The position numbers and the translations under genes are program-made. A DNA stretch of 34,446 bases from a virus (Duplodnaviria; Caudoviricetes). Positions 2,196 to 31,123 of this stretch are shown here, in pieces. The stretch lies in IMG/VR virus record IMGVR_UViG_3300034410_000436, positions 1 through 34,446 of that record; one strand, given 5' to 3'. The notes under the pieces were generated by a model that was not told the origin of the DNA, did no database searches, and saw only the letters and a program-made list of their open reading frames with translations. Position 1 is the first letter of the stretch. Every line of letters starts with the position of its first letter.

Positions 2196-5100
2196 TTAGC
2201 CTTTAAGATCGTTAACTTCGTCTTTAAGTTCTTTAATTGCTTCTACTATGAGTGCAGTAACGTTACCATATGCAACACTCTTAATTCCATCATCTCCTTC
2301 AGTAACAACTTCCGGTAATACACTTTCAATTTCTTGAGCAATAAAGCCGGCTTTTCTTACACCAGGTCTTGATTTCATATCGAAGTAAACACCTCTTAGA
2401 TCACAAACTTTTTCAAGAGCAGAATCGATAGTTACGATATTCTCTTTTAATCTTTCGTCTGAGTTAGCATTTAAATCACCGGTTGCAGTAAAGTCACCAG
2501 TTGTCATATCGAATGTGAATACGTCAGCGTTGGTGCCACCTCTAAATGCAACAGTTGGCATGTTACCAGAATCGCCTCTAATAACATAAGCATTTGAAGC
2601 AGTTTCGTATAATGTCTCAACGTAAGGTGAACCACCAGTACCACCAAATCCTAATGTTTGATCAGCTGGAATCCAGAAAGAACTTGTGTTACCATCAATA
2701 CCTGCGGCTGTTAATGTACCAACAACTGTAAGATTACCTTCAACTTGAATATTTTCTACTGTTAATTCGTCATCTTCAGAAGTATAGAAGAAGTTAGATT
2801 CTCCACCTGGGTTTGGACCAGTTGTACCCATCATTGGTCGAGATGTGTTACCACCTTCGAACATTGTTATGAATACTGGAGTACCTTGTAATCCTGTTTC
2901 GTGGATGTTCTGTAAGTTATTAACTCCACCTTCAGGACCAAAGCCCTGCATACCTTGAGTACCTTGGAATCCGCGTTCGCCTTGGAAACCTTGAGCAGCC
3001 TGTGTACCTTGAATACCTTGAGTACCTTGACCTGGGAAACCCTGAATACCAAGATCACCTTGCATACCTTGAGTACCTTGGATACCTTGTGAACCAACTC
3101 CTGGAGGACCTTGGAAACCTAAGTCACCTTGGAAACCCTGTGCACCTTGGTTACCGTCATTACCCAATCCACCGCCGATACCTTGGAAACCTTGTATACC
3201 CAAGAAGCCTTGAACACCTTGAGAACCGCCTTCACCTAAATCACCGATTAGACCTTGAGTACCTTGGAAACCGAAGAAACCCTGTACACCCTCATCGCCG
3301 ATACCAGCTGGACCTTGGAAACCTTGTAGACCTTGAATACCGTCTCCGGCGTCACCTTGGAAACCTTGAACACCGTCGTCGCCGTCAATACCTTGAATAC
3401 CTTGAACACCGCCTTCACCGATACCAGTTAAGCCTTGTAGACCTTGAATACCTTCGTCGCCAACTTCGCCGTCTAATCCTTGTGGACCTTGAATACCTTG
3501 TATACCAGCTCCTGGAGGACCTAAGTCACCTTGAATACCTTGGTGTCCTTGTAATGCGTCACCTTGAATACCTTGGAAACCTTGAATACCAGTAGCACCG
3601 ACTCCAGCAAAACCTTGGAAGCCTTGGAAACCTTGTGTACCCTGATTAGCCGTACCTTGGAAACCTTGAGTACCTTGTGATCCTTGGAAACCTTCGTCTC
3701 CATCAGCACCAGCAATACCTTGAACAGATTGTGTACCTTGAGTACCCTGTGAACCTTGTGTACCATCGCCACCAATAAATCCTGCTTGACCTTGGAAGCC
3801 TTGAGTACCTTGCATTCCTTGGAAGCCTTGAGTACCAGCTTCACCTGGACCGCCTTGAAGACCTTGTGATCCTTGGAAACCTTCAAAGCCTTGAAGACCT
3901 TGGATACCTGCTGGACCAATATCACCTGTTCTTGCGAATGTAATGATAATATCTTCGTCTTGACTAAAGTTCGATACTGATCCACTTACGTATGCAGCAT
4001 CTATATCAAAGTACCCACTTGATTCTGTTAATGCAGAAATTGTAAAGATTACAAAGTTTGCTGGAGTAGCTTTTTCTGATATTTTAAAGTGACCTTTAAT
4101 AGGACTTGTTGAATCATCAACTGTTCTAAGGAACGGCTGAATATCTACAAAGTTATCGTCTCTATCATCGATAAACAATTTAGTTGCAGATGCAAGAGTA
4201 GCATTATTGAATTTTAAATAACCAGTACTATCTGTGCTACTTGGATCGGTAGCTGCTGTATTTGTACTATATGTGTAATCAAATGTTACACCACCAAATC
4301 CACCAGTTGAACCTTGGAAACCGCCTCCACCTTGAAGACCAGTAAAGCCTTGAACACCTTGTGGTCCAATTGGTCCTGGGAAACCTTGAATACCTTGGAA
4401 ACCAAGATCACCTTGGAAACCGTCTGTACCTTGAAGACCAGCACCTGTTGAACCTTGGAAACCTAAGTCACCTTGGAAACCTTGAATGCCCTGTAATCCT
4501 TGAATACCTTGTAAGCCCTGTTCACCAGCTCTTGTAAAGGTAAAGATTATGTCTGTATTATTTGTAAAATATGTTGCGTCAGCATTAGTAGATTTAGTTA
4601 AATACGTAATGCTTAAGTTATAATAAGTTGAATTTTCTACTAAACCTGTTAAGCTATAAAGTAAGAATTCTGCAGGATCAGCAATAGAAACAATCTTGAT
4701 ATAACCAAGCATTGCAGAACCACCATCATCTAAACTTCTTAGATAATCATCGAGGTTTGCACCATTTGTTTCTGTATCCGACATGCGCATAATTGTAGCT
4801 GCAGTAAGATCAGTATTGTTAAATTTAATTAATCCTGAAGCTGGACCTGTAGGTGTTGTACTTGGAGTAAAGTCATATTCAAATGAAGCTCCACCGTAAG
4901 CACCAGCAATACCTTGAGCACCTTGTGTGCCTTGGAATCCTTGTATACCTTGATGGCCTTGAGTACCTTGTGTTCCTTGGAATCCTAAGAAACCTTGTAA
5001 GCCTTGAGTACCCTGTGCACCTTGAATACCAGCATCACCGCGTGGAACAAAGTTAATTAATGTTTTTGCAGTATGACCAGAACCAATAACATCTAAATCC

Positions 5101-6974
5101 CAGCTGTAACTATTACCTGAAGTAAGTCCATATTGACCTACATATGTAACATCGAAGATAACAAAGGTTTTAGTACCACTTGTATCCCAGTTAACTGCTG
5201 AAAATTCGTATACTACTTGATGGTGTCCACCAGGACCATTGCCATCATCAAAACTTTCTATTACAACAAGACCTTTTGAGGATCCTGGAATAGCTGCTAG
5301 CCAATCAAACATTTCATCAAGTTCACCAGTATAGTTACTTAATGGAATATCGTCTAATACTAATTTAGTCGCGCTTTGAACATTGGTGTTGTTAATTTTC
5401 CAAGCAGAAATGCCTGGATTAGTAGTTGGGTCAAGATCATTAGTGAAAGCCCACTCATATGTTAAACCACCGTACCAACCAACAGCACCCTGTAGTCCCT
5501 GAGTACCCTGGAAGCCTTGAGTTCCTTGGAACCCTTGGATACCTACATCACCCTGTAAACCTTGAACTCCTTGGAATCCTTGTGTGCCTTGATGGCCTTG
5601 AGTACCTTGGAAGCCTTGCGTTCCTTGAACACCTTGATGTCCTTGAGTACCTTGCGAACCTTGGAAACCTTCGTCACCTTGTAAGCCTTGTACACCCTGA
5701 GTTCCTTGCATCCCTTGAATGCCGGTAAAACCTTGGAAACCCTGTGTACCTTGAATTGATTGTGGACCTTGAGTACCTTGAAGACCCTGTAAGCCTTGAA
5801 GACCTTGTAATCCTTGAACGCCCTGTGTACCCTGAATACCTTGATCGCCTGCTAAGCTAAATGCAACTAATGTTGGAAGCTGTTGAGTGGTGCCTGGGTT
5901 TGGAGTATTTAATTGAACGAAGTCGCTCTTAATACCATCGCCTGATAAGAAAGTAACATCTAATTCCCAATAACCTGTTCTATCTGTTGCTCCCTGAATT
6001 TGGAAGATCATATAGTTTGATGGGTTATTACGAAGAGTTATCTTCATAGTACCTTTATTTGCAGTACCTACAGCAGCAATAGCAGTATATAAACCTTCTA
6101 AGTTTACACCATAGAAAGCTTCATCGTCAATCCAAATTTTTGTAACTGAACTAAAGTTATCACCAGGATTAGGCGCACCATTTAAGATCATGTCACCAGT
6201 GCCTGGATCGGCTTCTACAATTCCATCATCGATTCTAAATTCTACTACGTGACCAGCATCGTCTCCACTAAATCCTTGGAAACCTGTATCGCCTTGGATA
6301 CCTTGTGTACCCTGCATACCTTGAATTGACTGCGGTCCTTGCGTACCTTGAATACCGAAGTCGCCCTGTATTCCTTGGACACCTTGCACACCTTGTGGTC
6401 CTTGTGTCCCTTGGTTACCTTGAATACCTTGCAAGCCTTGAACACCAATAAAACCTTGTAAGCCCTGCGTACCTTGGAAACCTCTAAAACCTCTTGATCC
6501 CTGAATACCTTCTTCACCAATAGTACCTTGGTTACCTTGTAAACCTTGGATACCAGTGAAACCTTGTACGCCTCTGAATGAACCAATGTTTACCCAAACA
6601 GCTCCATCATATACCCATAACTCATCGTCAGTATTATCGACAACTGCGTTACCAAGAACTGCTGATGGGAATGCAGCGTTTAATGTTGCTTGTTGGTCTC
6701 CACCAGCATCAACATCGGCAACAGAACCGATTACATCGAATCCTGGGCCATAATCTCCTTGTAAACCTTGAAGACCAGCAGGTCCTGTTGTACCTGTAGT
6801 ACCTTGAACACCAGCACCAACTGCTGTCCAAACTGTTCCATTTGATACATATATAAGACCATCGCTACCATAAGCGACCGCACCTGTATATGGAGCTGGA
6901 TCGAGTTGAATAGGGACCTGTTGCGGTTGGCCCTGTCCAACGATTTTGCTACCGCTTATTGATCTAAAAGCCAT
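2196..6974 (-). CDS. Collagen-like (Gly-X-Gln) tail fibre with four globular inserts and a C-terminal peptidase S74 intramolecular chaperone
   Basis: 1592 aa with long GXQ triplet runs. The C-terminus has NSDERLKENI...GFIAQE...VAYGNVTALIVEAIKEL, the S74 autocleavage/chaperone signature. Confidence 0.9.
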   Translation of the reverse strand: MAFRSISGSKIVGQGQPQQVPIQLDPAPYTGAVAYGSDGLIYVSNGTVWTAVGAGVQGTTGTTGPAGLQGLQGDYGPGFDVIGSVADVDAGGDQQATLNAAFPSAVLGNAVVDNTDDELWVYDGAVWVNIGSFRGVQGFTGIQGLQGNQGTIGEEGIQGSRGFRGFQGTQGLQGFIGVQGLQGIQGNQGTQGPQGVQGVQGIQGDFGIQGTQGPQSIQGMQGTQGIQGDTGFQGFSGDDAGHVVEFRIDDGIVEADPGTGDMILNGAPNPGDNFSSVTKIWIDDEAFYGVNLEGLYTAIAAVGTANKGTMKITLRNNPSNYMIFQIQGATDRTGYWELDVTFLSGDGIKSDFVQLNTPNPGTTQQLPTLVAFSLAGDQGIQGTQGVQGLQGLQGLQGLQGTQGPQSIQGTQGFQGFTGIQGMQGTQGVQGLQGDEGFQGSQGTQGHQGVQGTQGFQGTQGHQGTQGFQGVQGLQGDVGIQGFQGTQGFQGTQGLQGAVGWYGGLTYEWAFTNDLDPTTNPGISAWKINNTNVQSATKLVLDDIPLSNYTGELDEMFDWLAAIPGSSKGLVVIESFDDGNGPGGHHQVVYEFSAVNWDTSGTKTFVIFDVTYVGQYGLTSGNSYSWDLDVIGSGHTAKTLINFVPRGDAGIQGAQGTQGLQGFLGFQGTQGTQGHQGIQGFQGTQGAQGIAGAYGGASFEYDFTPSTTPTGPASGLIKFNNTDLTAATIMRMSDTETNGANLDDYLRSLDDGGSAMLGYIKIVSIADPAEFLLYSLTGLVENSTYYNLSITYLTKSTNADATYFTNNTDIIFTFTRAGEQGLQGIQGLQGIQGFQGDLGFQGSTGAGLQGTDGFQGDLGFQGIQGFPGPIGPQGVQGFTGLQGGGGFQGSTGGFGGVTFDYTYSTNTAATDPSSTDSTGYLKFNNATLASATKLFIDDRDDNFVDIQPFLRTVDDSTSPIKGHFKISEKATPANFVIFTISALTESSGYFDIDAAYVSGSVSNFSQDEDIIITFARTGDIGPAGIQGLQGFEGFQGSQGLQGGPGEAGTQGFQGMQGTQGFQGQAGFIGGDGTQGSQGTQGTQSVQGIAGADGDEGFQGSQGTQGFQGTANQGTQGFQGFQGFAGVGATGIQGFQGIQGDALQGHQGIQGDLGPPGAGIQGIQGPQGLDGEVGDEGIQGLQGLTGIGEGGVQGIQGIDGDDGVQGFQGDAGDGIQGLQGFQGPAGIGDEGVQGFFGFQGTQGLIGDLGEGGSQGVQGFLGIQGFQGIGGGLGNDGNQGAQGFQGDLGFQGPPGVGSQGIQGTQGMQGDLGIQGFPGQGTQGIQGTQAAQGFQGERGFQGTQGMQGFGPEGGVNNLQNIHETGLQGTPVFITMFEGGNTSRPMMGTTGPNPGGESNFFYTSEDDELTVENIQVEGNLTVVGTLTAAGIDGNTSSFWIPADQTLGFGGTGGSPYVETLYETASNAYVIRGDSGNMPTVAFRGGTNADVFTFDMTTGDFTATGDLNANSDERLKENIVTIDSALEKVCDLRGVYFDMKSRPGVRKAGFIAQEIESVLPEVVTEGDDGIKSVAYGNVTALIVEAIKELKDEVNDLKG
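2940..6570 (-). repeat. 9-bp-periodic coding repeat from Gly-X-Gln triplets, in five blocks separated by globular domains
   Basis: Recurrent accttg(N3) on the plus strand corresponds to CAA-GGT (Gln-Gly) codons on minus. Confidence 0.9.
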
Positions 6975-7396
6975 TATACATCATCCTCCTCGGATTGACC
7001 AAGGGTAAAGGATAATGAAGCATCCACGGCTAAGTTTGTATCAGTTTTTAATTCTAGTAAATCTCCAGATTTAAAGAATTGTCCATTGAGTGGTAAAGGA
7101 ATTGTGTCATACGCAGGAATTTGAAGATTTCTGATAATCCAAAAAGTATCATTATCTTCATACCTATACGTTCTTACGTCAACCATTACTGTGTTTGCTG
7201 TAAAGTTACATAAGATGAGAGGAGAAATAACTTCTCCTACTCCAGGTTCTACCGTTGTTGAACCACCAAACACTAATTCAGGTACCTCATAATTTGGTAC
7301 TTCAATCATAGTCTGCCAATTCGTACTCAACGTAAAGGACTTGGCTACCGGTTTAGCATCTGGTGCCTGAGATGTTACGATTGTTGTAATAGTCAT
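6974..7396 (-). CDS. Hypothetical 140-aa beta-rich protein, probable fibre adaptor
   Basis: Shares TAATG stop/start overlaps with both neighbours. Has alternating beta-strand patterns and GDLLELK. Function is inferred from context only. Confidence 0.7.
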   Translation of the reverse strand: MTITTIVTSQAPDAKPVAKSFTLSTNWQTMIEVPNYEVPELVFGGSTTVEPGVGEVISPLILCNFTANTVMVDVRTYRYEDNDTFWIIRNLQIPAYDTIPLPLNGQFFKSGDLLELKTDTNLAVDASLSFTLGQSEEDDV

Positions 7397-10300
7397 TATA
7401 GTGATGCCCTTGAGTTAGATGCCCTTCGTGCGAGTTTTCTTACCGATGATGTAAACGGTCGACCTTCGATTCGACCTGTTCTACCATTAATCTTCAATCC
7501 TCGTGCGAAGTACTGGTTATTTAATTCGTCTGATCCAGACCATCTGATTCGACCGCCATTTTCTGATAATACCGAAGCATTAGCACCGATAGCAGCACCA
7601 ACGTTCCTGAAGTTCAATGGTAAGGCGTTTCTGTTAACACCTGCCGAAGCACCGTTGAACTGGTGAGCAATGGATTCAACTAGCGATCCAAATACTAGGA
7701 AGTTAGGTCGTATGACACTATCTATAATTACGTTATCAATCAATTCGGTTACCATATTTCTATGCGTTAGGTCCGGAGCAATATTGTTATTTATATAAGT
7801 TTTCATCTGTGTCCAAGCGCCTGTGAATGCGTCAAGTAAATCAGTATTATTCTGACCAACTGATGCCCAAGCTACGCCTGTCCAGTGGAAGATTTCGCCA
7901 ACATAACGATTATCGTTATTATTAGTTGGAATAATATATGCATCCCAACGTTTCATATCAGTTAATGCGTCTCTTGCAGCTGCATCAACGACCGTACCTT
8001 TGAATCTTAAGTTTCTCCAATTAGCAAATGATGCTGGCGGATTGAACACTGGGAATACATGTTGTGCATCGATATTAAATAATGCGCCAACGAAAGATCT
8101 AGAAGCTTGATCAGCACCCGCACCAGAAACGTTATATAAGTTATTTGGATTAAGTGATGGATCAGTATATCTAAAGTCGTTTTGGATAACTTTAAGGAAG
8201 TTACCTGCATCACGATAAGTTTTAGGTAGATCAATAAACTTGTATTCAGAAGTAATGAATCTTTGTACTTCACGCTGTATTCGAGTTCTGTTATCGCCAA
8301 GAATATCTTTAGCAAACTTGAATGTTTTATCAGTTTCCCAACCAAAGTCTGGATCAATTGATGGTCCAAGCTTATTAACATCATTGTAGAATAATGCGTT
8401 GTAGAAGATTAATCCTAAATCTGTTGCTTGCTTAGATTGTACTTCAGTACCAAGTTCAGATCTAATAACCTGACCAGGATATGTACCTCTAACAATTTGT
8501 GCAACAATGTAACCAAGTTGACGATATGCTTGAGCAGTTGCTTCTCTTGTATCTTCAGGAACTCTTAATTCGTTATTCCAGAAGTAGAAGTTTGCATTCC
8601 ATCTTGTTGCAAGGTTACCACCGTAGTTAAGATCCCAAGACATAGCATCTAGAATATAACCAGCATCTCTACGACATTTAGCTTTGCTGTAATCAACAAT
8701 TGTAAATGTATCTTTTAAGAATTCAGTTACATCATCTGCAAGTTCGTCAAGGTTTTCATCGATTGAGTTAGCAGCTGCTATTCTATCAGCGTCAACCCAA
8801 GATAGATCAGGTTCAGTAATTGCTGGGATAGCATCAATTGAATCTCTTCTAATTGTATCTTCAACTATTCTTACAAGATCAGCTACTTCTTCAGCTTCAA
8901 CTGCGGTAGCGGCTGTAACTGCCACTTGAGTTGATGAACTATGCTTGGATATTGAAGTATCAACTGTTCCACCAACTACGATCTTCTCGACAGTGTCTGC
9001 TAATTCAGTAAAGAATCTTGCAGTTTGTTGTCTTTGATCTGCTGGTAATACTGATACTGCATTTACAAAGTAAAGACCTGCAGTTTGAACAGTTGCATAG
9101 TTTGTTGAGTAGTTAACATCGTGAGATAATGCATCGATCATTGTACCAACGTCTCTTCTACATTTCTCTTTAGAGTAACTAATACCATTGTAAGTATCGT
9201 AAATGTATGTTTGTAGATCAGTAGCCATTTGAACTGTATTATTATCAATAACGTTTTTAGCAGCAAGAATATCTGCATCGATCCAGTTTGTGAATGGCTC
9301 AACTCTTGCAGGTATTGCTGATGGACTGTTATCGTCTGAAACTTTGCTTAACATTAATGCTAGGTTCATAGCTTCAGTAGCAATAGGTCTTCTAGTTGCT
9401 ATGGTTGGCATTTCTTGTTTAACGTGGTTACCAGTAACATGTGATATTGCATTGAGTGATGCTCTTACGAATGTATGAGCTCCACCGCCTTTACCGTAAG
9501 CAACTTTACCAACTTGCATTGTAATTGTAGTTGCATCAGCACTTGTAATGTAATATGGGTTACCATAGTATGGATCGCCAAGTTGTGGAGATGGATGTTC
9601 TGCAATATCTCCGTCTAGGCTACATGTAAATACGATACTTTCAGGAGCAATCATTACATGATCACCAGCTGTAAGACCGTGTCCTGTACCTAATGTTGCT
9701 GTAAAGATTCCTGAATCAGGATCATATGATGCGCTTGTAGGAGTAAATTGATTACCAATTTCTCTTTCAACTGGCTCGTTACGAACAACATGTTGAACAA
9801 CTTTAGCCATATATTCGAAGGCTTCTCTTGTTGCTTGACGTTGATCGATTGGTAAGATATTTACTGCATTCTTGAAGTAAAGTTCTGCAGTTCCATGCAT
9901 TGCAGCGTTACCACCGTATTGAATATCATGTGATATTGCATCGACGATATAACCTGTATCTCTTCTGCATCTTGCTTCTTCGTATTGTAGGAATGCAAAC
10001 TTATCATTTAAGTATTGAACAACTGAAGATCCTAGAGCTTCTTTACGTCCAAGGATAAGATCTTTTTCAGTTTCAAAATTATAACCAGTAGCAGCAGCGT
10101 CAGTAATTGTAGCTTCTCTTGCTTGTGGTAGATTAATTAATGAATCATCAGTAATAATATCTGCAACGATCTTAATAAGTAACTCAACCTCGATACCAGA
10201 TGCGCCAACAACGTTACCGAATCCAGATGTTACCTGAGAAACTCCATTACCTGTTGTAGGGGTAACTGTTTGCTTAAGAACGACTTGTTCAGCTACTGCA

Positions 10301-13300
10301 GCTAAGTGGTTATATAATGCGGCAGTTGGAGCTCTTTGAGCTTCAGGTAATCCAACATTAATACCATTTTCGAAGTATAGTTTAGCAAAGTCTCTCATTG
10401 CAACATTAGAACCGTGTCTAATATCGTAAGCTGTAGCTTCAACTAAGAATCCAACGTCTCTTCTACATTTTGTTTCGTCATAAACTAATGAACCGTGATT
10501 TTGTGCAATCCAAGCAATAGCTTCTTCTTGTAAGAATGGAATGTTAAGAGTTAAGCCTTGAGTTGCAGCTGCATCTGAGTTACCAACATTTGCAATACCG
10601 TAATCATAAGTAACTCCAGCAGTACCGTTCTTCATAATGTTAATTACATTATTGAATGCGTTTGTTGCTCTTGTTAATGCAGCACCAGATAGTCTTGGTA
10701 GAATATCGTCTTGTACATATTCGATAGCTTCAACTGTTTCTGATAATTGCTCATTAATTACATTTTGAGCAAGTGCTGTACCTACTCGATAAGCTTTACC
10801 GTAGTATTGTGAAGGATAATCAGAACCAGTTTGTACGTCTCTTGCAACTGCATCGATAATAAATCCTACGTCTCTTGCACATTTTGCTTCATCGTAAGTA
10901 TAGTTATTATCTCGTACAAAACGAACAACTTCTTCTTGGATAAACTCTCTGTTCCATTGTAAAGTCTTTCTTGCAAATGTTCTTGCAGGATCCATTAAAG
11001 GACCGCCCGTAGCGACTGGTAATGGACGTGGTGTTTGTTGTCCAACCGATATGTCAAGTGATCCAGTATAATCTGGAACTACTAATCTGTCATCTACTAC
11101 GTTAGCAATAATCATTGCAAGGTTCTTAGCAGCTAATCCTGTTGCAGCGTCAGCGGCATCAAGAGTAACATTTTGCATTTCAAGGTTACCAGTAACTTGT
11201 GATAATCCATCAGTTAATGCACTTACAAATGTATGAGCTCCGGTATATGCTCCAGCAGCTGATACCCACATTGTAATAGTTGTACCTGATACTCCAATAA
11301 TTGGGCAAGGCTTGTGGTGGAATCTATGATGTGCTTCTGGACTTGCGTGATCTTGTGCACCAGATCCTGTATCACAACTAAATGTAATTGCACCTTCGGT
11401 AAACCAAATATAATCGTCAGTTGTTAATGTGTGAGTACCAATCGTTGCTACCATAATACCAGTTACTGGATCGTAAGTAGCGTTAGTTGGAGTAAATCTA
11501 GAACCGAATACTGGCTCATTGATTTCGTTCTTAACAACTTTTTCCATTACATCAGCAATATGTGTAAATGCTAATCTTGATGGTTCTCTTTGATAATATG
11601 GTAATGTATTTACTGCGCCTTCGAAGTAATATCTTGCGTTGTAAACTGTAGCAGTATCTCCACCATACTCTAAATCTTCTGAGATTGCATCAACAATGTA
11701 ACCAACGTCTCTAGAACATTTGGTAACTTCGTAACCGTGACCATCGAATGTTTCGTAAATATGATCGATAATTTCAGTTTGATACTTAGGCTTCTGACCA
11801 AGTATTGCTTCTGATTCAGACTTAAGTGGATAGTTTGAAGTTAATTTATAAACTGGTTCTACAACTGTTGGAACTGTTCCATCATTTTGTTCAAGTGTTT
11901 CACCAATTTGAGCAAATAAGTTTACAGCCCTTGAAGCAATGCTTACACCAAGTGATCTTCTTAATCCGTTAGTTGTAGCACTTACAAATGTATGGACTTT
12001 ATCAACACCGGCTTTACCAACTTGCATTGTAATAGTTGTTGAAGTTACTGAGTCAATTCTAACAGGCTTGTTAAAGATTGGATCAGTAGGTCTTGGGTGT
12101 GAGATATTAATCGGTGTAGGATCAGAATCTGATGTTGGGCAACTAAATGTAATTGCGTTTTCATCAAAGATTACGTGATCACCTTTAACAAATCTATGTC
12201 TGTCACCAAGTGTCATTGTCATAACACCGGTTAAGTGGTTATATGCAATGTCTGTTGCTGTATAAGCGTCAGCCATAGTAGCTCTTCTAACACTGTTAGC
12301 AGTAGCACTAATGAAACTATGTACATCAGTATTTGAACCGGCTGAGCCTGCATTTACTGTAATTGTTTGAGCAGCAATGTCTGTAATTACGTATGGCTTA
12401 CCAAGATTAGGATCATTTGCATTTGGATGAGAATCTGTACCACCGCCATTAAATGCGCATTGGAATGTAATTGCATTAGGATCGATACTAATACGATCGC
12501 CAATTGCGAAAGTATGAACTCCAATTGTTAATACCATAACACCAGTTACTGGATCGTAAGTAGCATTCGATGGAGAGAAAGATTCTTCATCAGTTAATAC
12601 TTGAGTTTCTGTACCTTGTAGAGGAGTAACTGTTTCGCCTCTTACAATTTGTCCTACCAAGTAAGATACAAATTCATATGCACCTGATGTTGGAACAATT
12701 TCTTCATCACTTAATACTGGTAAAGCATTTTCGAAATAAAGTCTTGAATTATTTACTGTTGCAGCGTTTCCACCGTGTTGTAAGTCCCAAGAAGCTGTAT
12801 CAACGAAGATACCTAAGTCTCTTTCACAAGCAGCTTGATCATATGTAAATCCAGGATGATTAGCAGCAATCCAAGCAATAACTTCTTTTTGTATAAATGC
12901 TTTGTTATTTTGTAATGCAGTTTTTGCAGCGTATGCGTCAATCGATACTGATTGTCCACCAAATACTAATGCGTCAGCAGCAGCATTTCCGTTTGACATA
13001 ATATCGATAATTTCATCGAATGAAGCGTTTGATCTTGCGATTGCAGTAGCGTCAGTTAATACTTCAGTTGCAATCTTATCTTTTAACCAAGTAATAGCTC
13101 CAACTGTTTCAGTAAGCTGATTATTAACTACGTTGTTTGCACCAACTGTACCGATTCTATAACCTTTACCAACATATATTGAGTTAACGTTTGAATCAGT
13201 TGCAATATCTCTTGCTACAGCATTTAAAATAAATCCTGTATCTCGCATACATTTATCTTTGTCATAGATGAAGTAGTTATCATTCATATATGCATCGACT

Positions 13301-16300
13301 TCAGCTTGTAGATATGCTTTGTTCTTTTGTAAGATTCTCGATGCATATACACCTTGTTGAGAACCTGCGACTTTAATAACTGCACCTTCGTCTGCACTTA
13401 CAAATGTATGGGTATCTGTATTTGTTCCTGCAGTACCGCAATAAACTGTAACAACATCACCAGCAACGTTTGTAATTGCTAATGGTAACTTGTATGACCA
13501 ATCACCGATACGTGGTGAGAAATCAGTACCGCCACCATTGTGTGCACAACTAAATGCGAAACTTTGTGGTTGTAATTCGATATGATCGTCAGTTGTAAGA
13601 TCGTGACCTGGAATTGTAATATCTAAAATACCTGTTACTGGATCATAATCTGCAGTTGTAGGAGTATAAGCTTTTAATACTTTAGCAGGATCTGAGAAGA
13701 ACAATGCGTTAGCATCGATACAATCAGATGTTGCACTTACAAATGTATGGTTATTAGCATGGCCATTTGCATTACCTACGTTTACTGTAATTGTATTACC
13801 TGTTACTGCTTTAACTCTTACTGGTTCTTTATATGCAGGGTGGTCGTATAATGGAGCAGCATCTGTTCCTGTTACACCGCCAACGTCACAACTAAATACA
13901 ATTGATTCTGGAGCAATTTCAATCCATTTACCAACTGGTAGATCGTGATTACCAATTGTAAGTTCCATATCGCCTGATACTGGATCGTATGTTGCAGTTT
14001 CTGGAGTAAATGTTCCTGTCCACATATCACCTTCGCGAATAGCGTTGGTTGTTGCAGATACAAAGGTATGAACTGATGTGTCACTTGACTCACCAACATT
14101 TACTGTAATTGTTGTTGCATCTCTATCAGAAATCTTAATTGATTTCTTATATGCAGGATGTCTTTTTTCTGCTTGGATAGCGTTAGTTTCTGCTGATACA
14201 AATGTATGTAATCCACCGCCATTTGCGACTCCACCAACATTCATATGAATCGTATTACCATCAACTCTATCAATAACAATTTGTTTCTTGTAGAATGGGT
14301 GATGTGATTCAGGAGCTGGGTGGTTTGTTATGTCACCATCTAATGCACATGTAAATACAATTGAGTTTGGTTTGAACTCTACAAGATCGCCAGCTTTAAG
14401 AGCATTTGTTCCAATGTTTGCACTGAACTCGCCAGTTGCTGGATCATAAGATGCAGTTGTAGGAGTATAGTTAATAAACTCAGTAGTTGGATATGAATGC
14501 TCAGTAACGTTACCGTCTAATGCGCATGTAAATGTTAAACTATTTGGTTCAATAAAGATACTATCGCCAATTTGGAAATCGTGAGAACCAATTGTAAGTA
14601 CTGTTGTACCTGATGTCGGAGTATATACTGCATTTGTAGGAGTATATTTCTTACCATTATTGTTAAGCAATCTAGTCATTTCATCGAATGCTTTATTTGC
14701 TCTATCTTCAGCAATTGAATTAGTTACTAAGTCTGCAGTTTCTGCTTTTAAGTAATTAATTGAACCAACTGTTTCGACCAACTGATCAGTAACACTAACT
14801 TCTCCAGACTTAGTACGATAAGCCGCACCAGTTTGAATTGAGTTATAGTTTGTACCAAGCATTACATCTCTTTGAACTGCTGGTAAGATATATTCTTCTG
14901 TATCTCTGTGACATTTCTTACTGTCATAGAAGTAGAATTCATTATCTACCCAGTCCATCATGTAATCTTGTACGAACTCTCGGTTTAATTGTAAACCTGC
15001 TCGAGCATTACGCTTATTAACATCGATAGATGAATTATCGCTGAATGTAATTGCGTCGCCGATTACTGATACTGCATGATCTTTTGCTTCAACAAATCTA
15101 TGTTCGAAATTAGCTTTTCCTAATCCTGGATTAACTGTAATCGTTTTAGCTGATACAGCAACAATTGGTAATGCAGCCAAGTAAGCTTTATCAACTTTTC
15201 TTGGATGACTGATTTGTGTTTTAAAGTTATCAGAAGCACATGTAAATGTAACCCCGCCTTCTGCAATATTAACATAACGTCCAACTGTTAAATCGTGGGT
15301 ACCAATTGTAATAACCATTCTACCAGTTTCTGGATCATATGTTACTTTAGTTGGAGTATATTTCTTACCTGAGTTAGCAAGAGCATTAATGATCGTATTA
15401 AATGATGCATAAGCGTCTACTGCGCCAGCAGGAGAATCGTCTTGAATAATTTCATCAGTTGTTTTACGTAATCTTTCGAAAGCAGCTACTGTTTCATTTC
15501 TTTGATTTTCAAGAGATGTTCTAGCAGTATTAACATAGTATGCTAATCCAGTAGTTACAGCATTATAGTTTGTATCCAATAACATGTCAAACTTAGTTGC
15601 TGGTAAGATATATTCTTTTACGTCTCTTTCACATTTATCGCCATCGTAAGCATAGAATTCATCGTTGTTATCGATCCAATCTACAAACTCATCAATGATT
15701 AAGTTTCTGTTATCTTGAACAAGCTCTCTTGCCGCAACTGCGTCTGTATCGCCAGTATTAGCAAAGATAATATCTTCGGCAGCTTCTTCACCATTTTGAA
15801 GAATATTTAATGTTTCATCTAAAGATCTATCTAAACGAGTTTGTACTTCGCCTGATTGTTCGTTAGTAAAGATATGATTAATGTCTGCTTTAATATGTTC
15901 AATAGAACCTACTGTTTCAGTCATTTGATCGCTAATAACAACATATGAAATTGGCGAACGATATGTGATACCGTTTAAACGACCCCAGTAGTTAGAATTT
16001 GTTGCAACGTCATAAGATGCAGAATCAACAATTAATCCTGTATCTCTGAAACATTTATCAGCATTATAACCTTGATAACCAAGTCCTGGTCCGCCTTCAA
16101 ATCCTGTTGTAGTATTTGCAGTTAAATAATCGATCATATTATCGATAATTTCAGCTTGATTTTCATCAATTGTATCTGCAAAATCTGTATTAGAAATTAG
16201 GTTAAGGTCATTAGCTTGTGCAGGTTTAATAATAACGGTTGAACCTCTTGCACGCATTGAGATGTCACCGAACTGAGAACCTGAGTTGTTCAATGTCATT

Positions 16301-18462
16301 TGACCACCGTCTAATGCGAAGAACGCTTGACGTGTAAAGATCGAAAGTGAACCAATACCGTTAACACCAGCACCGTTCTTAGCAACGTAACCTGTACCGT
16401 TTTGAGTACGAGGTGTGAAACCGAAACAAAGTACGTAGGTGTATAGTGAGTCAGTATCAAGTACCGCTCTATCCGCTAAAAGACAACCACCACCACGGCC
16501 AACCAATCTATTTGGGAAGTCGTCAATTCCAATAGATTCCACTGTACCCGTACCACCACGTTGGGCGTAAAGCATATCTCCAACATCTACATTTCCTTTC
16601 AAGTTCCTTACGTAAATCTGGCTTGCTGAATCAATATCTGCAATGTAAGAAATATAGCCGCTTGCTCCGCTTGAGAATGTTACTTCGTCATCAATCTGAA
16701 ATTGTGCTTGAGGAGAGTGACCAGCTTCTAAATAAAACTCTTGGCCTAAATCAAGAATATTACCTTTTGAGTTAAATGGATTTAGAGGTGGTTCAACATC
16801 TAGACGGTTGAAGTTTGAAAGCTGCGAGCTATCTCTTAAGTATGGAGATCTTCTTAACAATGCACCTGGACGATATGCAATAGCGAAACCGCCTTCAGGT
16901 TGGTCAAAGTTATCGACCTCGAAGTTCATGTATGAGAAGCCTTGTACATAACAACCAGAACCAACTAAGATACCGTTTGTTTTCTCGTAACCTTTCTTCT
17001 TTTGAATAACTGTAGCATATTGACCTGCAGTAGAAGTTAATGAACAATCATCTGGAAGACTGATTGGCTCATCTACATAATAGGTACCTGGGCCACAGGA
17101 AATATGAACTGCGTTATTAATATCGTTACGATCAAAAGATCCACCGGCTTTTTGTAAAGCAAGTTCTTCCGCTCTTTTAAGAGTACGAATTGGTTGAAGA
17201 ATTGTACCAGGATTTTTATCATCGCCGTCTGTTGAAACGTGAACCTTAAGTGATTTTTCTGTTTTCTTCGAGAACTCATCGTACAATTGACGATATGTCA
17301 TTCTCTCAGTATCACCGGTCTGAACGTTCTTCAGTGCAAAGTAACTGTCTTCGTCAAGCAATGGTTCAAATTGCTTAGTAAGATTCATATCAAAGTCAAC
17401 TAGTTCTGTTTCTTCGATTGTTGTATTAGAAATCGTAGAATCTGATATATCAGAATTTTGAATAGTTGATCTTTGCTGTACTAAATCTTCGGATGTTGAA
17501 CTTCCAATAGAGATATTTTCTGCAACAACATCATTCATTGCACCAGTTAAGGTTGCATTTTCTAATGTTGGATTAGTAAAGGTGTTATTATTACCAGTAC
17601 CATTTGAGAAATCTGAATCAGTAATTTGAATATTATTAGCAGTAGTATCTCTAATTTCACCATTTGCAAAAACTGAATTAGTAATAAGAACGTTATCAAG
17701 ATCACTGTCTGAAATGTCCGTATCAGTAATTACGCCATTTGCAAAAGTTGAAGTACTAATAGCAGCACCAAGAATAGTACCTGAGTTCAGTTCGAACCCA
17801 TTCGTGACTGAGTTGGTAAAGGAAGAATTAGCAACTATTAATCCAAAGGCTTGAGTATCAAACTGAGTACCACCTTGAATAGAAGAGTCTTCTATAGTTG
17901 AATTGGAGATGCGCGATTCATCTATTACAGCTCTTGCAAGACCTGAGTTATCTATGAATAAATTATTAGCTGTGCCAGCTTCGTACGTTCCGTTGTTGAA
18001 TAACGAATCGTCGATAGTAGAATTAGTGAATAGGTTATTGTTACCAGTACCGTTATTGAACTGGCCAAAATCTATAATCGTGAATGTGAATACGTTGTTG
18101 TTACCTGTTCCATCAGAGAAGTCTGAGTCTACAATCGTAACATTAGAAACTTCAGTACGCGCCATTGTACCATCGAGGATTTCGTTATCGTTAAGAACAG
18201 AATCGTTAACTGTACCGTCGTCGAAATCGTTACGGTTCATCTGGTTGTCTTCAATTGTAGAGTTGAAGATTCTTACACCTGAGATGCTACCGCCAGTAAT
18301 GGTTATTCTATCAAATATTTCATATTGTAAGGCTTGTACGAGTTCTTTTCTCGTAATATTTTTAGTACCGTCATCACCTTGGATAAGGTTAACGATAACA
18401 AAAAGGTCTTCAGAGCGAGTATTGGCACCTTTAATCGGACCTAATTCTGAAATCTTTGACAT
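7396..18462 (-). CDS. Giant 3688-aa virion fibre/appendage protein: acidic solenoid, beta-helix, 12 phycobiliprotein-like globin repeats and 9 beta repeats
   Basis: Fibre-type N-terminus (MSKISEL...EDLFVIVN...TKNITRKEL) and a beta-helix entry motif (VHVSTDGDDKNPG...PIRTLKRA...GPGTYY). Repeated YxxxKCxRDxGxxxxA and YDPxTG...FxC...HTFVSA units follow. A late promoter lies upstream. Confidence 0.9.
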   Translation of the reverse strand: MSKISELGPIKGANTRSEDLFVIVNLIQGDDGTKNITRKELVQALQYEIFDRITITGGSISGVRIFNSTIEDNQMNRNDFDDGTVNDSVLNDNEILDGTMARTEVSNVTIVDSDFSDGTGNNNVFTFTIIDFGQFNNGTGNNNLFTNSTIDDSLFNNGTYEAGTANNLFIDNSGLARAVIDESRISNSTIEDSSIQGGTQFDTQAFGLIVANSSFTNSVTNGFELNSGTILGAAISTSTFANGVITDTDISDSDLDNVLITNSVFANGEIRDTTANNIQITDSDFSNGTGNNNTFTNPTLENATLTGAMNDVVAENISIGSSTSEDLVQQRSTIQNSDISDSTISNTTIEETELVDFDMNLTKQFEPLLDEDSYFALKNVQTGDTERMTYRQLYDEFSKKTEKSLKVHVSTDGDDKNPGTILQPIRTLKRAEELALQKAGGSFDRNDINNAVHISCGPGTYYVDEPISLPDDCSLTSTAGQYATVIQKKKGYEKTNGILVGSGCYVQGFSYMNFEVDNFDQPEGGFAIAYRPGALLRRSPYLRDSSQLSNFNRLDVEPPLNPFNSKGNILDLGQEFYLEAGHSPQAQFQIDDEVTFSSGASGYISYIADIDSASQIYVRNLKGNVDVGDMLYAQRGGTGTVESIGIDDFPNRLVGRGGGCLLADRAVLDTDSLYTYVLCFGFTPRTQNGTGYVAKNGAGVNGIGSLSIFTRQAFFALDGGQMTLNNSGSQFGDISMRARGSTVIIKPAQANDLNLISNTDFADTIDENQAEIIDNMIDYLTANTTTGFEGGPGLGYQGYNADKCFRDTGLIVDSASYDVATNSNYWGRLNGITYRSPISYVVISDQMTETVGSIEHIKADINHIFTNEQSGEVQTRLDRSLDETLNILQNGEEAAEDIIFANTGDTDAVAARELVQDNRNLIIDEFVDWIDNNDEFYAYDGDKCERDVKEYILPATKFDMLLDTNYNAVTTGLAYYVNTARTSLENQRNETVAAFERLRKTTDEIIQDDSPAGAVDAYASFNTIINALANSGKKYTPTKVTYDPETGRMVITIGTHDLTVGRYVNIAEGGVTFTCASDNFKTQISHPRKVDKAYLAALPIVAVSAKTITVNPGLGKANFEHRFVEAKDHAVSVIGDAITFSDNSSIDVNKRNARAGLQLNREFVQDYMMDWVDNEFYFYDSKKCHRDTEEYILPAVQRDVMLGTNYNSIQTGAAYRTKSGEVSVTDQLVETVGSINYLKAETADLVTNSIAEDRANKAFDEMTRLLNNNGKKYTPTNAVYTPTSGTTVLTIGSHDFQIGDSIFIEPNSLTFTCALDGNVTEHSYPTTEFINYTPTTASYDPATGEFSANIGTNALKAGDLVEFKPNSIVFTCALDGDITNHPAPESHHPFYKKQIVIDRVDGNTIHMNVGGVANGGGLHTFVSAETNAIQAEKRHPAYKKSIKISDRDATTITVNVGESSDTSVHTFVSATTNAIREGDMWTGTFTPETATYDPVSGDMELTIGNHDLPVGKWIEIAPESIVFSCDVGGVTGTDAAPLYDHPAYKEPVRVKAVTGNTITVNVGNANGHANNHTFVSATSDCIDANALFFSDPAKVLKAYTPTTADYDPVTGILDITIPGHDLTTDDHIELQPQSFAFSCAHNGGGTDFSPRIGDWSYKLPLAITNVAGDVVTVYCGTAGTNTDTHTFVSADEGAVIKVAGSQQGVYASRILQKNKAYLQAEVDAYMNDNYFIYDKDKCMRDTGFILNAVARDIATDSNVNSIYVGKGYRIGTVGANNVVNNQLTETVGAITWLKDKIATEVLTDATAIARSNASFDEIIDIMSNGNAAADALVFGGQSVSIDAYAAKTALQNNKAFIQKEVIAWIAANHPGFTYDQAACERDLGIFVDTASWDLQHGGNAATVNNSRLYFENALPVLSDEEIVPTSGAYEFVSYLVGQIVRGETVTPLQGTETQVLTDEESFSPSNATYDPVTGVMVLTIGVHTFAIGDRISIDPNAITFQCAFNGGGTDSHPNANDPNLGKPYVITDIAAQTITVNAGSAGSNTDVHSFISATANSVRRATMADAYTATDIAYNHLTGVMTMTLGDRHRFVKGDHVIFDENAITFSCPTSDSDPTPINISHPRPTDPIFNKPVRIDSVTSTTITMQVGKAGVDKVHTFVSATTNGLRRSLGVSIASRAVNLFAQIGETLEQNDGTVPTVVEPVYKLTSNYPLKSESEAILGQKPKYQTEIIDHIYETFDGHGYEVTKCSRDVGYIVDAISEDLEYGGDTATVYNARYYFEGAVNTLPYYQREPSRLAFTHIADVMEKVVKNEINEPVFGSRFTPTNATYDPVTGIMVATIGTHTLTTDDYIWFTEGAITFSCDTGSGAQDHASPEAHHRFHHKPCPIIGVSGTTITMWVSAAGAYTGAHTFVSALTDGLSQVTGNLEMQNVTLDAADAATGLAAKNLAMIIANVVDDRLVVPDYTGSLDISVGQQTPRPLPVATGGPLMDPARTFARKTLQWNREFIQEEVVRFVRDNNYTYDEAKCARDVGFIIDAVARDVQTGSDYPSQYYGKAYRVGTALAQNVINEQLSETVEAIEYVQDDILPRLSGAALTRATNAFNNVINIMKNGTAGVTYDYGIANVGNSDAAATQGLTLNIPFLQEEAIAWIAQNHGSLVYDETKCRRDVGFLVEATAYDIRHGSNVAMRDFAKLYFENGINVGLPEAQRAPTAALYNHLAAVAEQVVLKQTVTPTTGNGVSQVTSGFGNVVGASGIEVELLIKIVADIITDDSLINLPQAREATITDAAATGYNFETEKDLILGRKEALGSSVVQYLNDKFAFLQYEEARCRRDTGYIVDAISHDIQYGGNAAMHGTAELYFKNAVNILPIDQRQATREAFEYMAKVVQHVVRNEPVEREIGNQFTPTSASYDPDSGIFTATLGTGHGLTAGDHVMIAPESIVFTCSLDGDIAEHPSPQLGDPYYGNPYYITSADATTITMQVGKVAYGKGGGAHTFVRASLNAISHVTGNHVKQEMPTIATRRPIATEAMNLALMLSKVSDDNSPSAIPARVEPFTNWIDADILAAKNVIDNNTVQMATDLQTYIYDTYNGISYSKEKCRRDVGTMIDALSHDVNYSTNYATVQTAGLYFVNAVSVLPADQRQQTARFFTELADTVEKIVVGGTVDTSISKHSSSTQVAVTAATAVEAEEVADLVRIVEDTIRRDSIDAIPAITEPDLSWVDADRIAAANSIDENLDELADDVTEFLKDTFTIVDYSKAKCRRDAGYILDAMSWDLNYGGNLATRWNANFYFWNNELRVPEDTREATAQAYRQLGYIVAQIVRGTYPGQVIRSELGTEVQSKQATDLGLIFYNALFYNDVNKLGPSIDPDFGWETDKTFKFAKDILGDNRTRIQREVQRFITSEYKFIDLPKTYRDAGNFLKVIQNDFRYTDPSLNPNNLYNVSGAGADQASRSFVGALFNIDAQHVFPVFNPPASFANWRNLRFKGTVVDAAARDALTDMKRWDAYIIPTNNNDNRYVGEIFHWTGVAWASVGQNNTDLLDAFTGAWTQMKTYINNNIAPDLTHRNMVTELIDNVIIDSVIRPNFLVFGSLVESIAHQFNGASAGVNRNALPLNFRNVGAAIGANASVLSENGGRIRWSGSDELNNQYFARGLKINGRTGRIEGRPFTSSVRKLARRASNSRASL
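8100..16200 (-). repeat. Array of 12 helical CxRD repeats (phycobiliprotein/globin-like)
   Basis: Cys codons at about 16051, 15631, 14911, 13249, 12826, 11716, 10879, 10465, 9967, 9160 and 8674, with a degenerate TYRD copy at about 8218. Spacing is 138-166 aa where no beta repeat intervenes. Confidence 0.8.
9445..15366 (-). repeat. Nine ~100-aa beta-rich repeats with conserved Cys and His
   Basis: Consensus (Y/F)TPTxAxYDPxTGxMxxTIGxHxLxxGDx(I/V)xIxxxxIxFxC...P...TITVxVG...HTFVSA, counted nine times in the translation. Confidence 0.85.
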
Positions 18463-18502
18463 TTGATGATACCCTTATGTGTTATAGCTCGTTGTTTAAC
18501 TT

Positions 18503-18510
18503 TATTTATA
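18503..18510 (-). promoter_or_regulatory. T4-type late promoter TATAAATA
   Basis: Plus-strand tatttata at 18503-18510, intergenic, about 40 nt upstream of the giant gene ATG at 18462. Confidence 0.8.
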
Positions 18511-21296: not shown

Positions 21297-21485
21297 TTAT
21301 CTCTTCTCTATTTTATCTACCCTATCGCTCAGTCTTTTCAAACAGGCTTTAGCTTCGTTAAGTTCGCTTTGTAATCTATCTACTTTTCTATATAATGCTC
21401 TTTCTGATTTATATTTATTAAGAGCTTGTATATCAGTATTTATTACTGCTCCGCTGTCATCTCGTACTAAAGCTGGCTTGATCAT
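21297..21485 (-). CDS. Small conserved coiled-coil protein
   Basis: LVRDDSGAVINTD followed by a heptad-like helix. This type of gene commonly follows VrlC-like genes in T4-like marine phages. ATGA overlap with the upstream gene. Confidence 0.7.
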   Translation of the reverse strand: MIKPALVRDDSGAVINTDIQALNKYKSERALYRKVDRLQSELNEAKACLKRLSDRVDKIEKR

Positions 21486-24400
21486 GTCAATGCAATGCCT
21501 CTATAGTCTTTTACAAATGGTGCATTATGAATGCTGTCAGCAATTAAGTCAATTCTTATTGCAAACTTTCTATATCCAAGGAATGTACCTGCATCACTTG
21601 TATATGTTAATACACCGGTATCTTTGTTTGCATCTGCTACAGCATATCTATATTCTCTAAAGTCGTCTAAATTAGAAGATGACGAGAAGGTTTGTGCGCC
21701 TTCAATAGTTTCTAATTCAATCCAATCAATAGTATCTTCTGCAGAGCTATCTTGTGCATGTTGTGGTCTAATATAAACTTTAATTTCAGTTCCTGCTGGT
21801 CTATAACCTGTTAAGTACAGATTTAAATCTTCAGCATCTAAGTCTTCAGCTAATTCAACAGTCTTAGAAATATATTTAGATGTTGTAACAGTTGAATCTG
21901 TTACTTTAAATTGATATGCTAATAGCGTTGCTAATTCTAAATCAACAATTGGAGTCGAAGTAGAGTTAGATGAGTTAGTCATAGCCACATTAATTAAGAA
22001 TGGTTTTGGATTTACAAAGTTGTTTGACCTAGAATAAATAACAACACCATTTTGAGTGAAGAAGTTATTATCACCAAACTTCATTGGCATATCATATGAA
22101 TTAACAACGTTTGCTGGATCTGTAAACGTACCACTGATTGAAGTTGTTGTTACAGAATCGTTTGTTTTCTGAATTAATGGTTGTACATAACTTAAATTAA
22201 TATTATCAACCGATCCAATTGTACCAGTTGTTGTTGAATCAAGACCTGTAAGAGTATCACCAGCAACAAATTTCTTAGACATAATCGAAGAACTTTGTTT
22301 TAAGTGAAGTGTAGATGCAGTATACTTGTTGTAATGTGAAATGATACCAGCAACAATTGGAATACCAGAAGATGTTGCGCCATTGAATGAACAAGGTTTA
22401 TCTGTAGTCATTTCAGTAGCTGAATCAACACTTACAATTCTAAATATATCCCTTGCAGTATTACCTGAATTAATTACAAGAATATAATCGCCTGCTGCAT
22501 AATCAGCAGTAAAGTCATTACCCGATTGAGTAATAATATTTGTTCCTTGTATCATTGAAACTGAATATCCTACATCAATTTGCTTATAAGCATATTCATT
22601 AATATTGAATCTTCCAGTCCAATCAGATAATGTTAAGAACTCGTGATCATCATTAGTAAGAGAAACACTACCTGTTGCAGCGTTAAAGTCGTGACGATAT
22701 AAGTTAAACTTAATATCTTCGTCTTGTACTGATTGCCATGCTCTATTGTTTGTAGATGTGAATAGAACTCCATCACCCCAGTCCATTACAACTGCTTGAC
22801 CTTGAGTAGGACCGGCAGTAAGATCATCACCACCAACTTTAGAAGTATAATGTAAGTAGTTTGGATCGTTAGCATCTGGCATAATTACCACTGCATATTC
22901 TTTTTCAACATCCATTCTAATCGGAGCATCAAATTGAACTTCTGTAACTGCCGAAGCGTCGTCTGATACACTTACTTCTGAAGGAGATAAATGAGTCTTA
23001 GAGAATGGTAAAATAATATTAGATGGATAACCATTAATAACTTCGCGTATTGTAATAGTAACACCGTTAATATTTGATTTACGTTTAAAGAATAAATCAA
23101 CTTTAGATACAAAGATTGAATTAGATCCACGACCCATACCTTGTTTAATAAAGAATGTTTGAGCTAATGGATCGCCTCGTCTTGTTACCTGAGTCATACG
23201 AGATGCTAAGTTTCTTGATGTAGCAGTTTCTTCTGTACCAAACTCTGGCATTCTTGTTGCGATGGTTGCTTTGTTCTGTGTAATATTATATGCGTGATAA
23301 GCAATTTCACCTTTTGAAGTAGAAGCTGATTCAATACTTGAATATTGACTCACATCAACTGCGGTAAGTACTCTATCACCTACATAGAATTGACCTTGTG
23401 GAATTCTAAATACAGCTCTTAAAATACCGTTTGAATCGGTTGTAACTGCAGCTCCGCGATCTCCAACTTTTTGTACATTTCTTGCATCCATTGCAGCAGG
23501 AGAGCCTGGAGCAACATGTGCATTAACATCAACACCATCAAAGAAGAAGTAGTGTTGTGTATCAGGACGTAGACCAGAGATGAATACTTTAACGTTTCTT
23601 GATCTCATAAATGGTTGGAATTGAACGTTAGTAACAAAGTCACCAACTTGATCTAATCCACCATCGTTTACAGTAAGACTTGATATTGTACCAGCTTGAG
23701 TCCTAGGAGTAATTGTAGTTGTCGTTCTACCAGAAGTAATACTAGTTGAAGGACCGTTGGTAATTGGACCATCCCAGCTTGTACCAGTGATTGGTAATAC
23801 TTCTTGTAAATCTTGGAATACACCCGCTAAATCAATTTCTAATGGTACTGGATTTTGAATAGTATCGTGAGCCATATCGTGGCTTGGAGAAATCTGAGCA
23901 TTACCATCATATTTCCAGAAGTTAGATACACAGTTTCTAAAGTTTGTAGCATAAGGCTGACCAATTAACTTAACATTAGCATTTCTACTTAATGAAGCAA
24001 CTTCAGCACTATTAACATCTGGGAATATAGTTGCGCCTGCGGCAGTACTATATTTAAGATCTATTGGGAATGTATTCAATGCAGGAGTAAGAATTTTCTT
24101 ATCAAAATGAATAGCAGCTTTATAGTTAGGATCTTCTGTATTAGCAATATCTGCATCATTCATTGGATCTACAATGTAACCATTCTTAAATCTTGATAAA
24201 CCATTTTCATCTAAAATTAATAGATTTTCTGAGCTTTGTTCTAATTGATTTAAACTAATGTAATATTCAAGACCTTCAATTCTTTTTTCGATCTTTTCAA
24301 TATCACGCATTGTATAGTTTGGAGTACCGACTGATTTTACTTGTACAGCTGACGAGAACTTACCTTGCTCTGACGCTTCTTTTTGTGATAAGGCAGGATA

Positions 24401-26842: not shown

Positions 26843-26857
26843 CTATTTGAGTTTCCT

Positions 26858-28510: not shown

Positions 28511-28534
28511 TTCACTTAACCCTAGCTTTTGTAA

Positions 28535-28542
28535 TATTTATA
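28535..28542 (-). promoter_or_regulatory. T4-type late promoter TATAAATA
   Basis: Plus-strand tatttata at 28535-28542 in the short intergenic gap, about 25 nt upstream of the gp8 ATG. Confidence 0.8.
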
Positions 28543-31120: not shown

Positions 31121-31123
31121 TTA

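Follow-up and report, generated by a model that had tools for sequence, protein, structure and literature searches.

A giant tail-cluster protein of a T4-like phage with predicted phycobiliprotein-like globin repeats, and probable bilin-enzyme genes of the same phage species

The DNA analysed here, the window, is a 34,446-nucleotide stretch of an uncultured T4-like tailed phage (Duplodnaviria; Caudoviricetes; positions 1 to 34,446 of IMG/VR record IMGVR_UViG_3300034410_000436). A single open reading frame (ORF) on its minus strand, 7396-18462, encodes a giant protein of 3688 amino acids (P0001), and a T4-type late promoter, TATAAATA, lies at 18510-18503 on the same strand, 48 nt 5′ of the ATG. 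The protein contains exactly 11 C-x-R-D (CxRD) motifs, against 0.09 expected and a maximum of two in 2000 shuffles, which bears out the description in a first-pass annotation of a late-promoter gene with 11 potential chromophore sites. Each motif marks one repeat, and a twelfth, degenerate repeat has T-Y-R-D at residue 3415. The 12 repeats align with one another over about 130 residues. The chain is made of an N-terminal repeat region rich in Asn, Asp, Ser, and Thr, the 12 globin repeats, about nine beta-barrel repeats, and a conserved C terminus. The features of the locus, all on the minus strand, are as follows.

18503..18510, minus: T4-type late promoter TATAAATA, 48 nt 5′ of the start codon
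7396..18462, minus: giant gene P0001, 3688 amino acids (ORF, Pfam, PHROG)
17383..18462, minus: N-terminal region of about 360 residues, low-complexity and pentapeptide-like (Pfam Pentapeptide_4 below cut-off: E 0.003, 18 bits against a cut-off of 38)
15787..16188, minus: predicted globin repeat 1, CFRD at residue 804 (16042-16053); the best Pfam PF00502 stretch is residues 760-879
15367..15768, minus: predicted globin repeat 2, CERD at residue 944 (15622-15633)
14647..15048, minus: predicted globin repeat 3, CHRD at residue 1184 (14902-14913)
12985..13386, minus: predicted globin repeat 4, CMRD at residue 1738 (13240-13251)
12562..12963, minus: predicted globin repeat 5, CERD at residue 1879 (12817-12828); followed by two beta repeats, likely inserted before the last helix
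11053..11850, minus: predicted globin repeat 6, CSRD at residue 2249 (11707-11718); predicted small beta-barrel insert between the last two helices
10078..11010, minus: predicted globin repeats 7 and 8, CARD at residue 2528 (10870-10881) and CRRD at residue 2666 (10456-10467); modelled as two globin domains (pLDDT 85.6)
9703..10104, minus: predicted globin repeat 9, CRRD at residue 2832 (9958-9969)
8896..9297, minus: predicted globin repeat 10, CRRD at residue 3101 (9151-9162)
8410..8811, minus: predicted globin repeat 11, CRRD at residue 3263 (8665-8676)
7954..8355, minus: degenerate repeat 12, TYRD at residue 3415 (8209-8220), without the attachment Cys, the Thr being shared by all 25 full-length relatives aligned
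21482..34427, minus: upstream context, genes for baseplate wedge, gp9/10-like, S8 protease, gp8-like, and DUF4815 proteins
2196..6974, minus: downstream context, collagen-repeat tail fibre with an S74 chaperone domain

The repeats are predicted to be phycobiliprotein-like globin domains in which the attachment motif is intact in 11 of 12 copies. The whole protein matches Pfam PF00502 at E 4.2e-9, above the family cut-off, over positions 33-150 of 155. A profile of the 12 repeats retrieves 14 PDB sequences at E≤10, 12 of which are phycocyanin chains, each a weak match, and in the three alignments shown CxRD lines up with the motif of phycocyanin alpha. Repeats 7 and 8, modelled with AlphaFold from 39 sequences, fold into two globin domains, and the top eight matches of this model among 48161 chains are all phycobiliproteins (Z 11.7-14.1, although helical bundles may often score below about 13; for example 8imk_G, Z 12.7, root-mean-square deviation 1.9 over 116). 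Photocobilins come next in this ranking, followed by heme globin sensors (Z up to 10.6). The Foldseek rows listed for the same model are mostly phycoerythrin chains (target TM about 0.6-0.76), and the repeats share 12-19% identity with phycobiliproteins. In the model of repeat 6 (pLDDT 75), the last two helices are separated by a small beta-barrel. The top three rows for this model are phycobiliproteins (Z 8.0-8.3), the barrel resembles a phage endosialidase domain (Z 7.3), and the viral matches that carry a name are for the most part tail and baseplate proteins of cyanophages. A phmmer search of the whole protein against the PDB returned chance matches only (E 0.09-0.84) and was set aside.

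Baseplate wedge, gp9/10-like, and collagen tail-fibre genes, identified with Pfam and PHROGs, surround the giant gene, and its product matches PHROG virion and tail-fibre families at E down to 1e-142. The gene thus combines a late promoter, a position in the tail cluster, and a virion-family match, as for T4-like tail and baseplate genes. The terminal part of the giant gene contains a second copy of TATAAATA (7788-7795, minus strand), which precedes the following ORF (6974-7396) by about 400 nt.

The giant protein belongs to a family of 1393 clusters at 50% identity, with up to 31 motifs per protein. Among 1217 domains sharing less than 60% identity with each other, the Cys is conserved in 94%, the Arg in 95%, and the Asp in 99%, and 1111 of the 1217 keep the full CxRD; these figures are upper bounds, because the search profile itself favours CxRD. 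His does not exceed 14% in any column of this alignment. With two repeat regions as tblastn queries, 172 and 161 of 50697 phage records matched, all of them cyanophages or marine single-cell viruses, and the cyanophage homologues are annotated as tail fibre, gp7, or virion protein. Five short relatives of the domain look like fragments, and no clear stand-alone single-domain form was found among the family relatives. An independent contig, G001, which is 96% identical, has no counterpart of window 10547-12856 (2.3 kb, three CxRD motifs), so that repeat number seems to vary between close strains.

As the first-pass annotation stated, the window itself holds no bilin enzyme: heme oxygenase, bilin reductase, and lyase families are all missing among the 18 ORFs scanned with Pfam and PHROGs. 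The rest of the genome was reached through near-identical contigs. Contig C110, from bin G051, is 98.5-99.3% identical to the whole window; its end shares an exact 55-base overlap with contig C105, the sole end overlap among nine contigs tested; and G001, at 92-97% identity to both, bridges the junction. C105 encodes a heme oxygenase and a reductase of the PcyA/PcyX branch, about 91 kb from the giant gene and next to genes that by eye resemble gp33, gp59, and gp32. Because C110 is nearly identical to the window, overlaps C105, and is joined to it by G001, the window's phage species very likely encodes both enzymes. A bilin source for this species was thus located beyond the window; in the complete relative G035, no CpeT match was found.

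Bin G051, titled Rhodobacteraceae bacterium, contains three giant genes, three heme oxygenase-reductase loci, nine capsid-gene matches, and three phage-like ALAS genes beside one stronger-scoring copy. No bacterial heme oxygenase or reductase was seen in the bin, whose completeness is not stated, and no end overlap ties the three phage-like ALAS contigs to the window's phage. The host is probably an alphaproteobacterium, as suggested by the bin title, the best baseplate matches, ALAS, and the type of transfer-messenger RNA (tmRNA) in this phage species, which we take to fit such a host; binning may mislead here.

Of the records that contain 102 relative loci, the 50 longest were scanned, and two of them carry heme oxygenase and bilin reductase genes. 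One is G035 (221 kb), the only complete relative, whose giant protein is 63% identical and which also carries an intact ALAS gene and has no psbA match; in the other, G041, both enzymes occur together with the giant gene. The remaining 48 contigs, in which neither enzyme was found, are not counted as absences because none is more than 56% complete; by alignment G001 stops short of the enzyme genes, and G043 likely does too. The longest contig of giant protein P0008 and that of reductase P0276 are both 160405, which pairs them indirectly. The ALAS gene of G035 (L154:1501-3158) is followed by a DUF454/YbaN-like gene (below cut-off) and directly preceded by what looks by eye like a ribonucleotide reductase gene. 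By eye, a porin-like gene with no NCBIfam match lies directly 5′ of hemO in G035 (L104:1-579) and in contig C173 (L263:8828-9628).

The linked reductase is of a distinct subtype. It keeps His88 and Asp105 and sits in the hemO cassette of a phage, and position 76 is Lys in the copies from C105, G035, G041, and C173. According to one report, this position is Glu in PcyA and Asp in PcyX (PMC13446030). Asp is found there in Pelagibacter phage Mosig and in G052, and the linked enzyme differs from PcyX at this residue; the G035 reductase is 33% identical to that of Mosig. TATAAATA occurs 37-41 nt 5′ of hemO in nine of 15 distinct upstream sequences (five of 20 rows were dropped, the gene being cut by the locus edge); the baseline, taken from 191 kb of G035 with 30 kb of structural genes set aside, is 16 of 181 ORFs. 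The nine sequences are closely related to one another. The late promoter and hemO of C105 are separated by a permuted tmRNA (tag ANENFAPSGLALAA, L261:788-1161). A second permuted tmRNA is found about 0.9 kb 5′ of hemO in C173 (L263:9613-9945). The canonical hemO-pcyX pair adjoins neck genes in the late structural cluster of Mosig (L118:39650-40886) and G052 (L335:9103-10378).

We then compared the distribution of domain and enzymes across 21 complete genomes (19 cultured phages, G052, and G035; one 69%-complete record was excluded). The panel was hand-picked: nine genomes for bilin genes, three for the domain, G035 for the giant gene, G052 via its capsid gene, and the rest as outgroups. Eight genomes have domain and reductase, four the domain only, four the reductase only, and five neither. 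The four domain-only genomes are all Synechococcus phages, so that each of the 12 domain-bearing genomes has a bilin source, either its own reductase or a Synechococcus host. The four reductase-only genomes were domain-negative under three local profiles searched without filters; Mosig and G052 carry canonical PcyX cassettes, and P-SSM2 and S-SSM6a are PebS cyanophages. Since all 12 domain-bearing genomes have a source and four of the 12 reductase-bearing genomes lack the domain, the link is one-way: in this panel the domain was never seen without a bilin source, and the enzymes do occur without the domain. A capsid-gene route to an unbiased panel gave 80 loci, two of them on contigs longer than 100 kb, and a domain search of 11 contigs, all fragmentary, gave no match.

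Among 14 cyanophages of the panel, CpeT was scored in eight of 11 domain-positive and none of three domain-negative genomes. The association reaches p=0.011 once two candidates below threshold, one of which is annotated cpeT, are counted as well. In two of these phages cpeT lies 1.4 kb (S-PM2) or 0.7 kb (Syn1) 5′ of the CxRD giant gene.

S-PM2 (L333): cpeT at 163910-164476, giant gene from 165889 onward; ATAAATA motifs before both genes
Syn1 (L334): cpeT at 19914-20474, giant gene from 21156 onward; ATAAATA motifs before both genes

Taken together, these data lead us, with moderate confidence, to regard the CxRD globin chain as a likely part of the tail or baseplate fibre that likely carries one covalent bilin per domain, made by the heme oxygenase and reductase that its species very likely encodes. 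In this model, the heme oxygenase, assigned by family, would open heme to biliverdin. The PcyA/PcyX-branch reductase, with His88, Asp105, and Lys76, would reduce ring A. The bilin would then attach to each Cys, partnered by the Arg and Asp, and would probably need no lyase, as is the case for the bilin biosynthesis-associated globins (BBAGs). A study of these proteins defines CXRD as the chromophore motif and reports lyase-free bilin binding by BBAGs that bear it (PMC10151467); the lack of a CpeT match in G035 would thereby be accounted for. The cyanophage versions could receive host or phage bilin and be loaded with the phage CpeT. Finally, the loaded protein would be built into the particle, as the promoter, neighbours, and family names suggest.

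The purpose that we favour would be to let light govern attachment to light-energised hosts. Of all the steps this one is the weakest, and we consider it unlikely taken by itself; a passive screening or structural cofactor role is about as likely. Darkness prevents adsorption of the phages P-HM1 and P-HM2 and does not prevent that of P-SSM2 (PMC6628666); the first two carry the domain, which P-SSM2 lacks. A broader scheme, which we hold to be doubtful, would extend the same reading to a widespread set of T4-like aquatic phages as bearers of tail biliprotein arrays. Non-cyanobacterial members would supply themselves through late-expressed ALAS, HemO, and the new-type Lys76 reductase, cyanophages would use host or phage bilin with CpeT, whose true substrate would be the fibre, and the pigmented fibre would act as a photoreceptor through which the free particle attaches only in light.

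Several results weigh against a bilin-bearing fibre. At the level of fold, only three of the 12 repeats match PF00502 when taken singly, Foldseek finds no PDB match to the repeat 7-8 model at E≤0.001, and Z scores below about 13, such as that of 8imk_G, can be frequent among helical bundles. The CxRD conservation was measured with a CxRD-favouring profile, and 47 cyanophage domains comprise 24 with CxRD, 13 with CxDD, five with CxTD, and five without the Cys; the CxDD and CxTD forms (L290-L319) could mean another chromophore or binding mode. The enzyme genes lie apart from the giant gene, and in the window's phage the tmRNA, rather than hemO, directly follows the late promoter. The complete genome of G035 gave no CpeT and no Fer2 ferredoxin match. 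A third of the reductase-bearing genomes (P-SSM2, S-SSM6a, Mosig, and G052) lack the domain, and the co-occurrence test proposed by the first-pass annotation shows no overall association of domain with reductase (Fisher p=0.40, 21 genomes, hand-picked panel, uncorrected for phylogeny), although each domain-bearing genome tested has a bilin source. Domain and CpeT give p=0.055 among the 14 cyanophages of this panel, likewise uncorrected. Adsorption of P-SSM2, which lacks the domain, is still light-enhanced (PMC6628666).

A possible, if tentative, alternative shares the four steps from heme cleavage to particle assembly and gives the bilin a passive task in place of a light switch: as a screen, an antioxidant, or a folding cofactor, it would protect the fibre or make it stiffer in sunlit water. 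As many as 31 motifs per protein would suit such a bulk role, as would the difference in repeat number between close strains such as G001 and the window, and phycoerythrobilin adducts are described as photochemically inert in Cph1 (PMC10151467). The adsorption contrast between P-HM1 or P-HM2 and P-SSM2 speaks instead for a role of light, in two lineages only.

We find it rather unlikely that no pigment is involved, the captured fold being a structural spacer or host-binding module, its Cys serving disulphides or metal, and the bilin genes acting in host metabolism or iron release. Four complete genomes have bilin genes without the domain, the enzymes lie about 91 kb away, the Arg is often replaced in cyanophage copies, and iron supply is among the purposes of hemO discussed in PMC11480375. 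On such a reading, however, one would have to account for the whole C-x-R-D set in 1111 of 1217 divergent domains and for a bilin source accompanying the domain in all 12 complete genomes that bear it, the 172 matching records among 50697 likewise coming only from cyanophages or marine viruses. Heme oxygenase suffices for iron release, which leaves the reductase unneeded, and a late promoter often precedes hemO.

It is improbable that the protein acts as a bilin-binding sink, scaffold, or decoy within the host cell during infection, rather than as a pigmented part of the mature particle. The late promoter, the baseplate and fibre neighbours, the PHROG virion and tail-fibre matches, and the virion annotations of cyanophage homologues all point to the particle; placement in the virion nevertheless comes by inference, and BBAG-like acceptors in the cell are suggested for phage bilins in PMC11480375. 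Heme binding by the domains, as in ordinary globins serving as an iron store or sensor, is very improbable and was rejected: the globin fold, the heme globin sensors in the structure ranking, and the ALAS and DUF454 genes of G035 would allow it, but no alignment column offers a conserved proximal His and phycobiliproteins outrank heme globins.

The proposal of the first-pass annotation, that phage bilin enzymes supply a phage-encoded virion apoprotein, survives in narrower form. For this lineage, it agrees with the predicted fold, the motif, the heme oxygenase and reductase of the same species, and G035. It does not extend to PcyX phages generally, because the canonical PcyX genomes lack the domain and the linked reductase has Lys76; a general link from PcyX to fibres is rejected on the two complete canonical genomes, Mosig and G052. 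Those phages need another explanation, and another phage bilin acceptor may exist in them. The purpose of hemO and reductase genes in phages of non-photosynthetic hosts is called enigmatic in PMC11480375, where binding to BBAGs is named among the possibilities. The light dependence of cyanophage adsorption is put down in PMC6628666 to changes, as yet unidentified, in tail fibres or receptors. With an acceptor of intact motif encoded by the phage itself, the two questions can be tested together. New here are the link between the phage species and its enzymes, the Lys76 subtype, the canonical PcyX counter-examples, and the CpeT association.

Three small ORFs of the window (18537-19905, minus strand) precede the giant gene; one, 18881-19414 (minus strand), resembles by eye a 2OG-Fe(II) oxygenase, with no match in Pfam, PHROG, or NCBIfam. 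A protein with a subtilase (Peptidase_S8) domain is encoded at 28550-31120 (minus strand) within the baseplate gene cluster.

Light-harvesting phycobiliproteins (phycocyanin alpha, allophycocyanin, phycoerythrin, and the bilin domain of ApcE) share with the repeats the predicted globin fold, a C-x-R-D on the same helix and in register, and the PF00502 match. Theirs are free subunits of 160-180 residues in the phycobilisomes of oxygenic phototrophs, whereas the phage has twelve copies in tandem in one 3688-residue protein with beta-barrel inserts, and its complete relative lacks psbA. The N-terminal X and Y helices of phycobiliproteins mediate alpha-beta pairing. Single phage domains align from target residue 33 or 50 onward, and so appear to lack them. 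BBAG-1 and BBAG-3, as described in PMC10151467, are likewise CXRD globins outside light harvesting that go with heme oxygenase and a PcyA-branch reductase. They are single-domain bacterial proteins clustered with pre-PcyA, heme oxygenase, V4R, and Fe-S genes, whereas the phage globins are tandem, lie about 91 kb from the enzymes, and have no V4R- or Fe-S-type neighbours in the window. Lacking the X and Y helices, not being a free subunit, and being unclustered with the enzymes, the phage protein was placed neither among light-harvesting phycobiliproteins nor among BBAGs proper.

The phage hemO-pcyX, hemO-pcyA*, and valaS cassettes described in PMC11480375 and PMC13446030 resemble the present one in that hemO adjoins a PcyA/PcyX-branch reductase in a non-cyanobacterial phage, with ALAS elsewhere in G035; they differ in the Lys76 seen here and in that the canonical PcyX phages tested have no CxRD protein. 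Giant cyanomyovirus proteins (PHROG 701, 5342, 18802, and 4527; S-PM2 p218 and the S-RIM2 virion structural protein) have the same combination of globin and beta-barrel repeats, with a more variable motif (CxRD in 24 of 47) and annotations as structural or hypothetical only. In the open full-text literature searched, with subscription journals and supplements outside its scope, no description of such domains in phage proteins surfaced, and a chromophore-bearing virion protein, if confirmed, would be a kind of system not described there. If the particle is pigmented, it matches no known kind of system.

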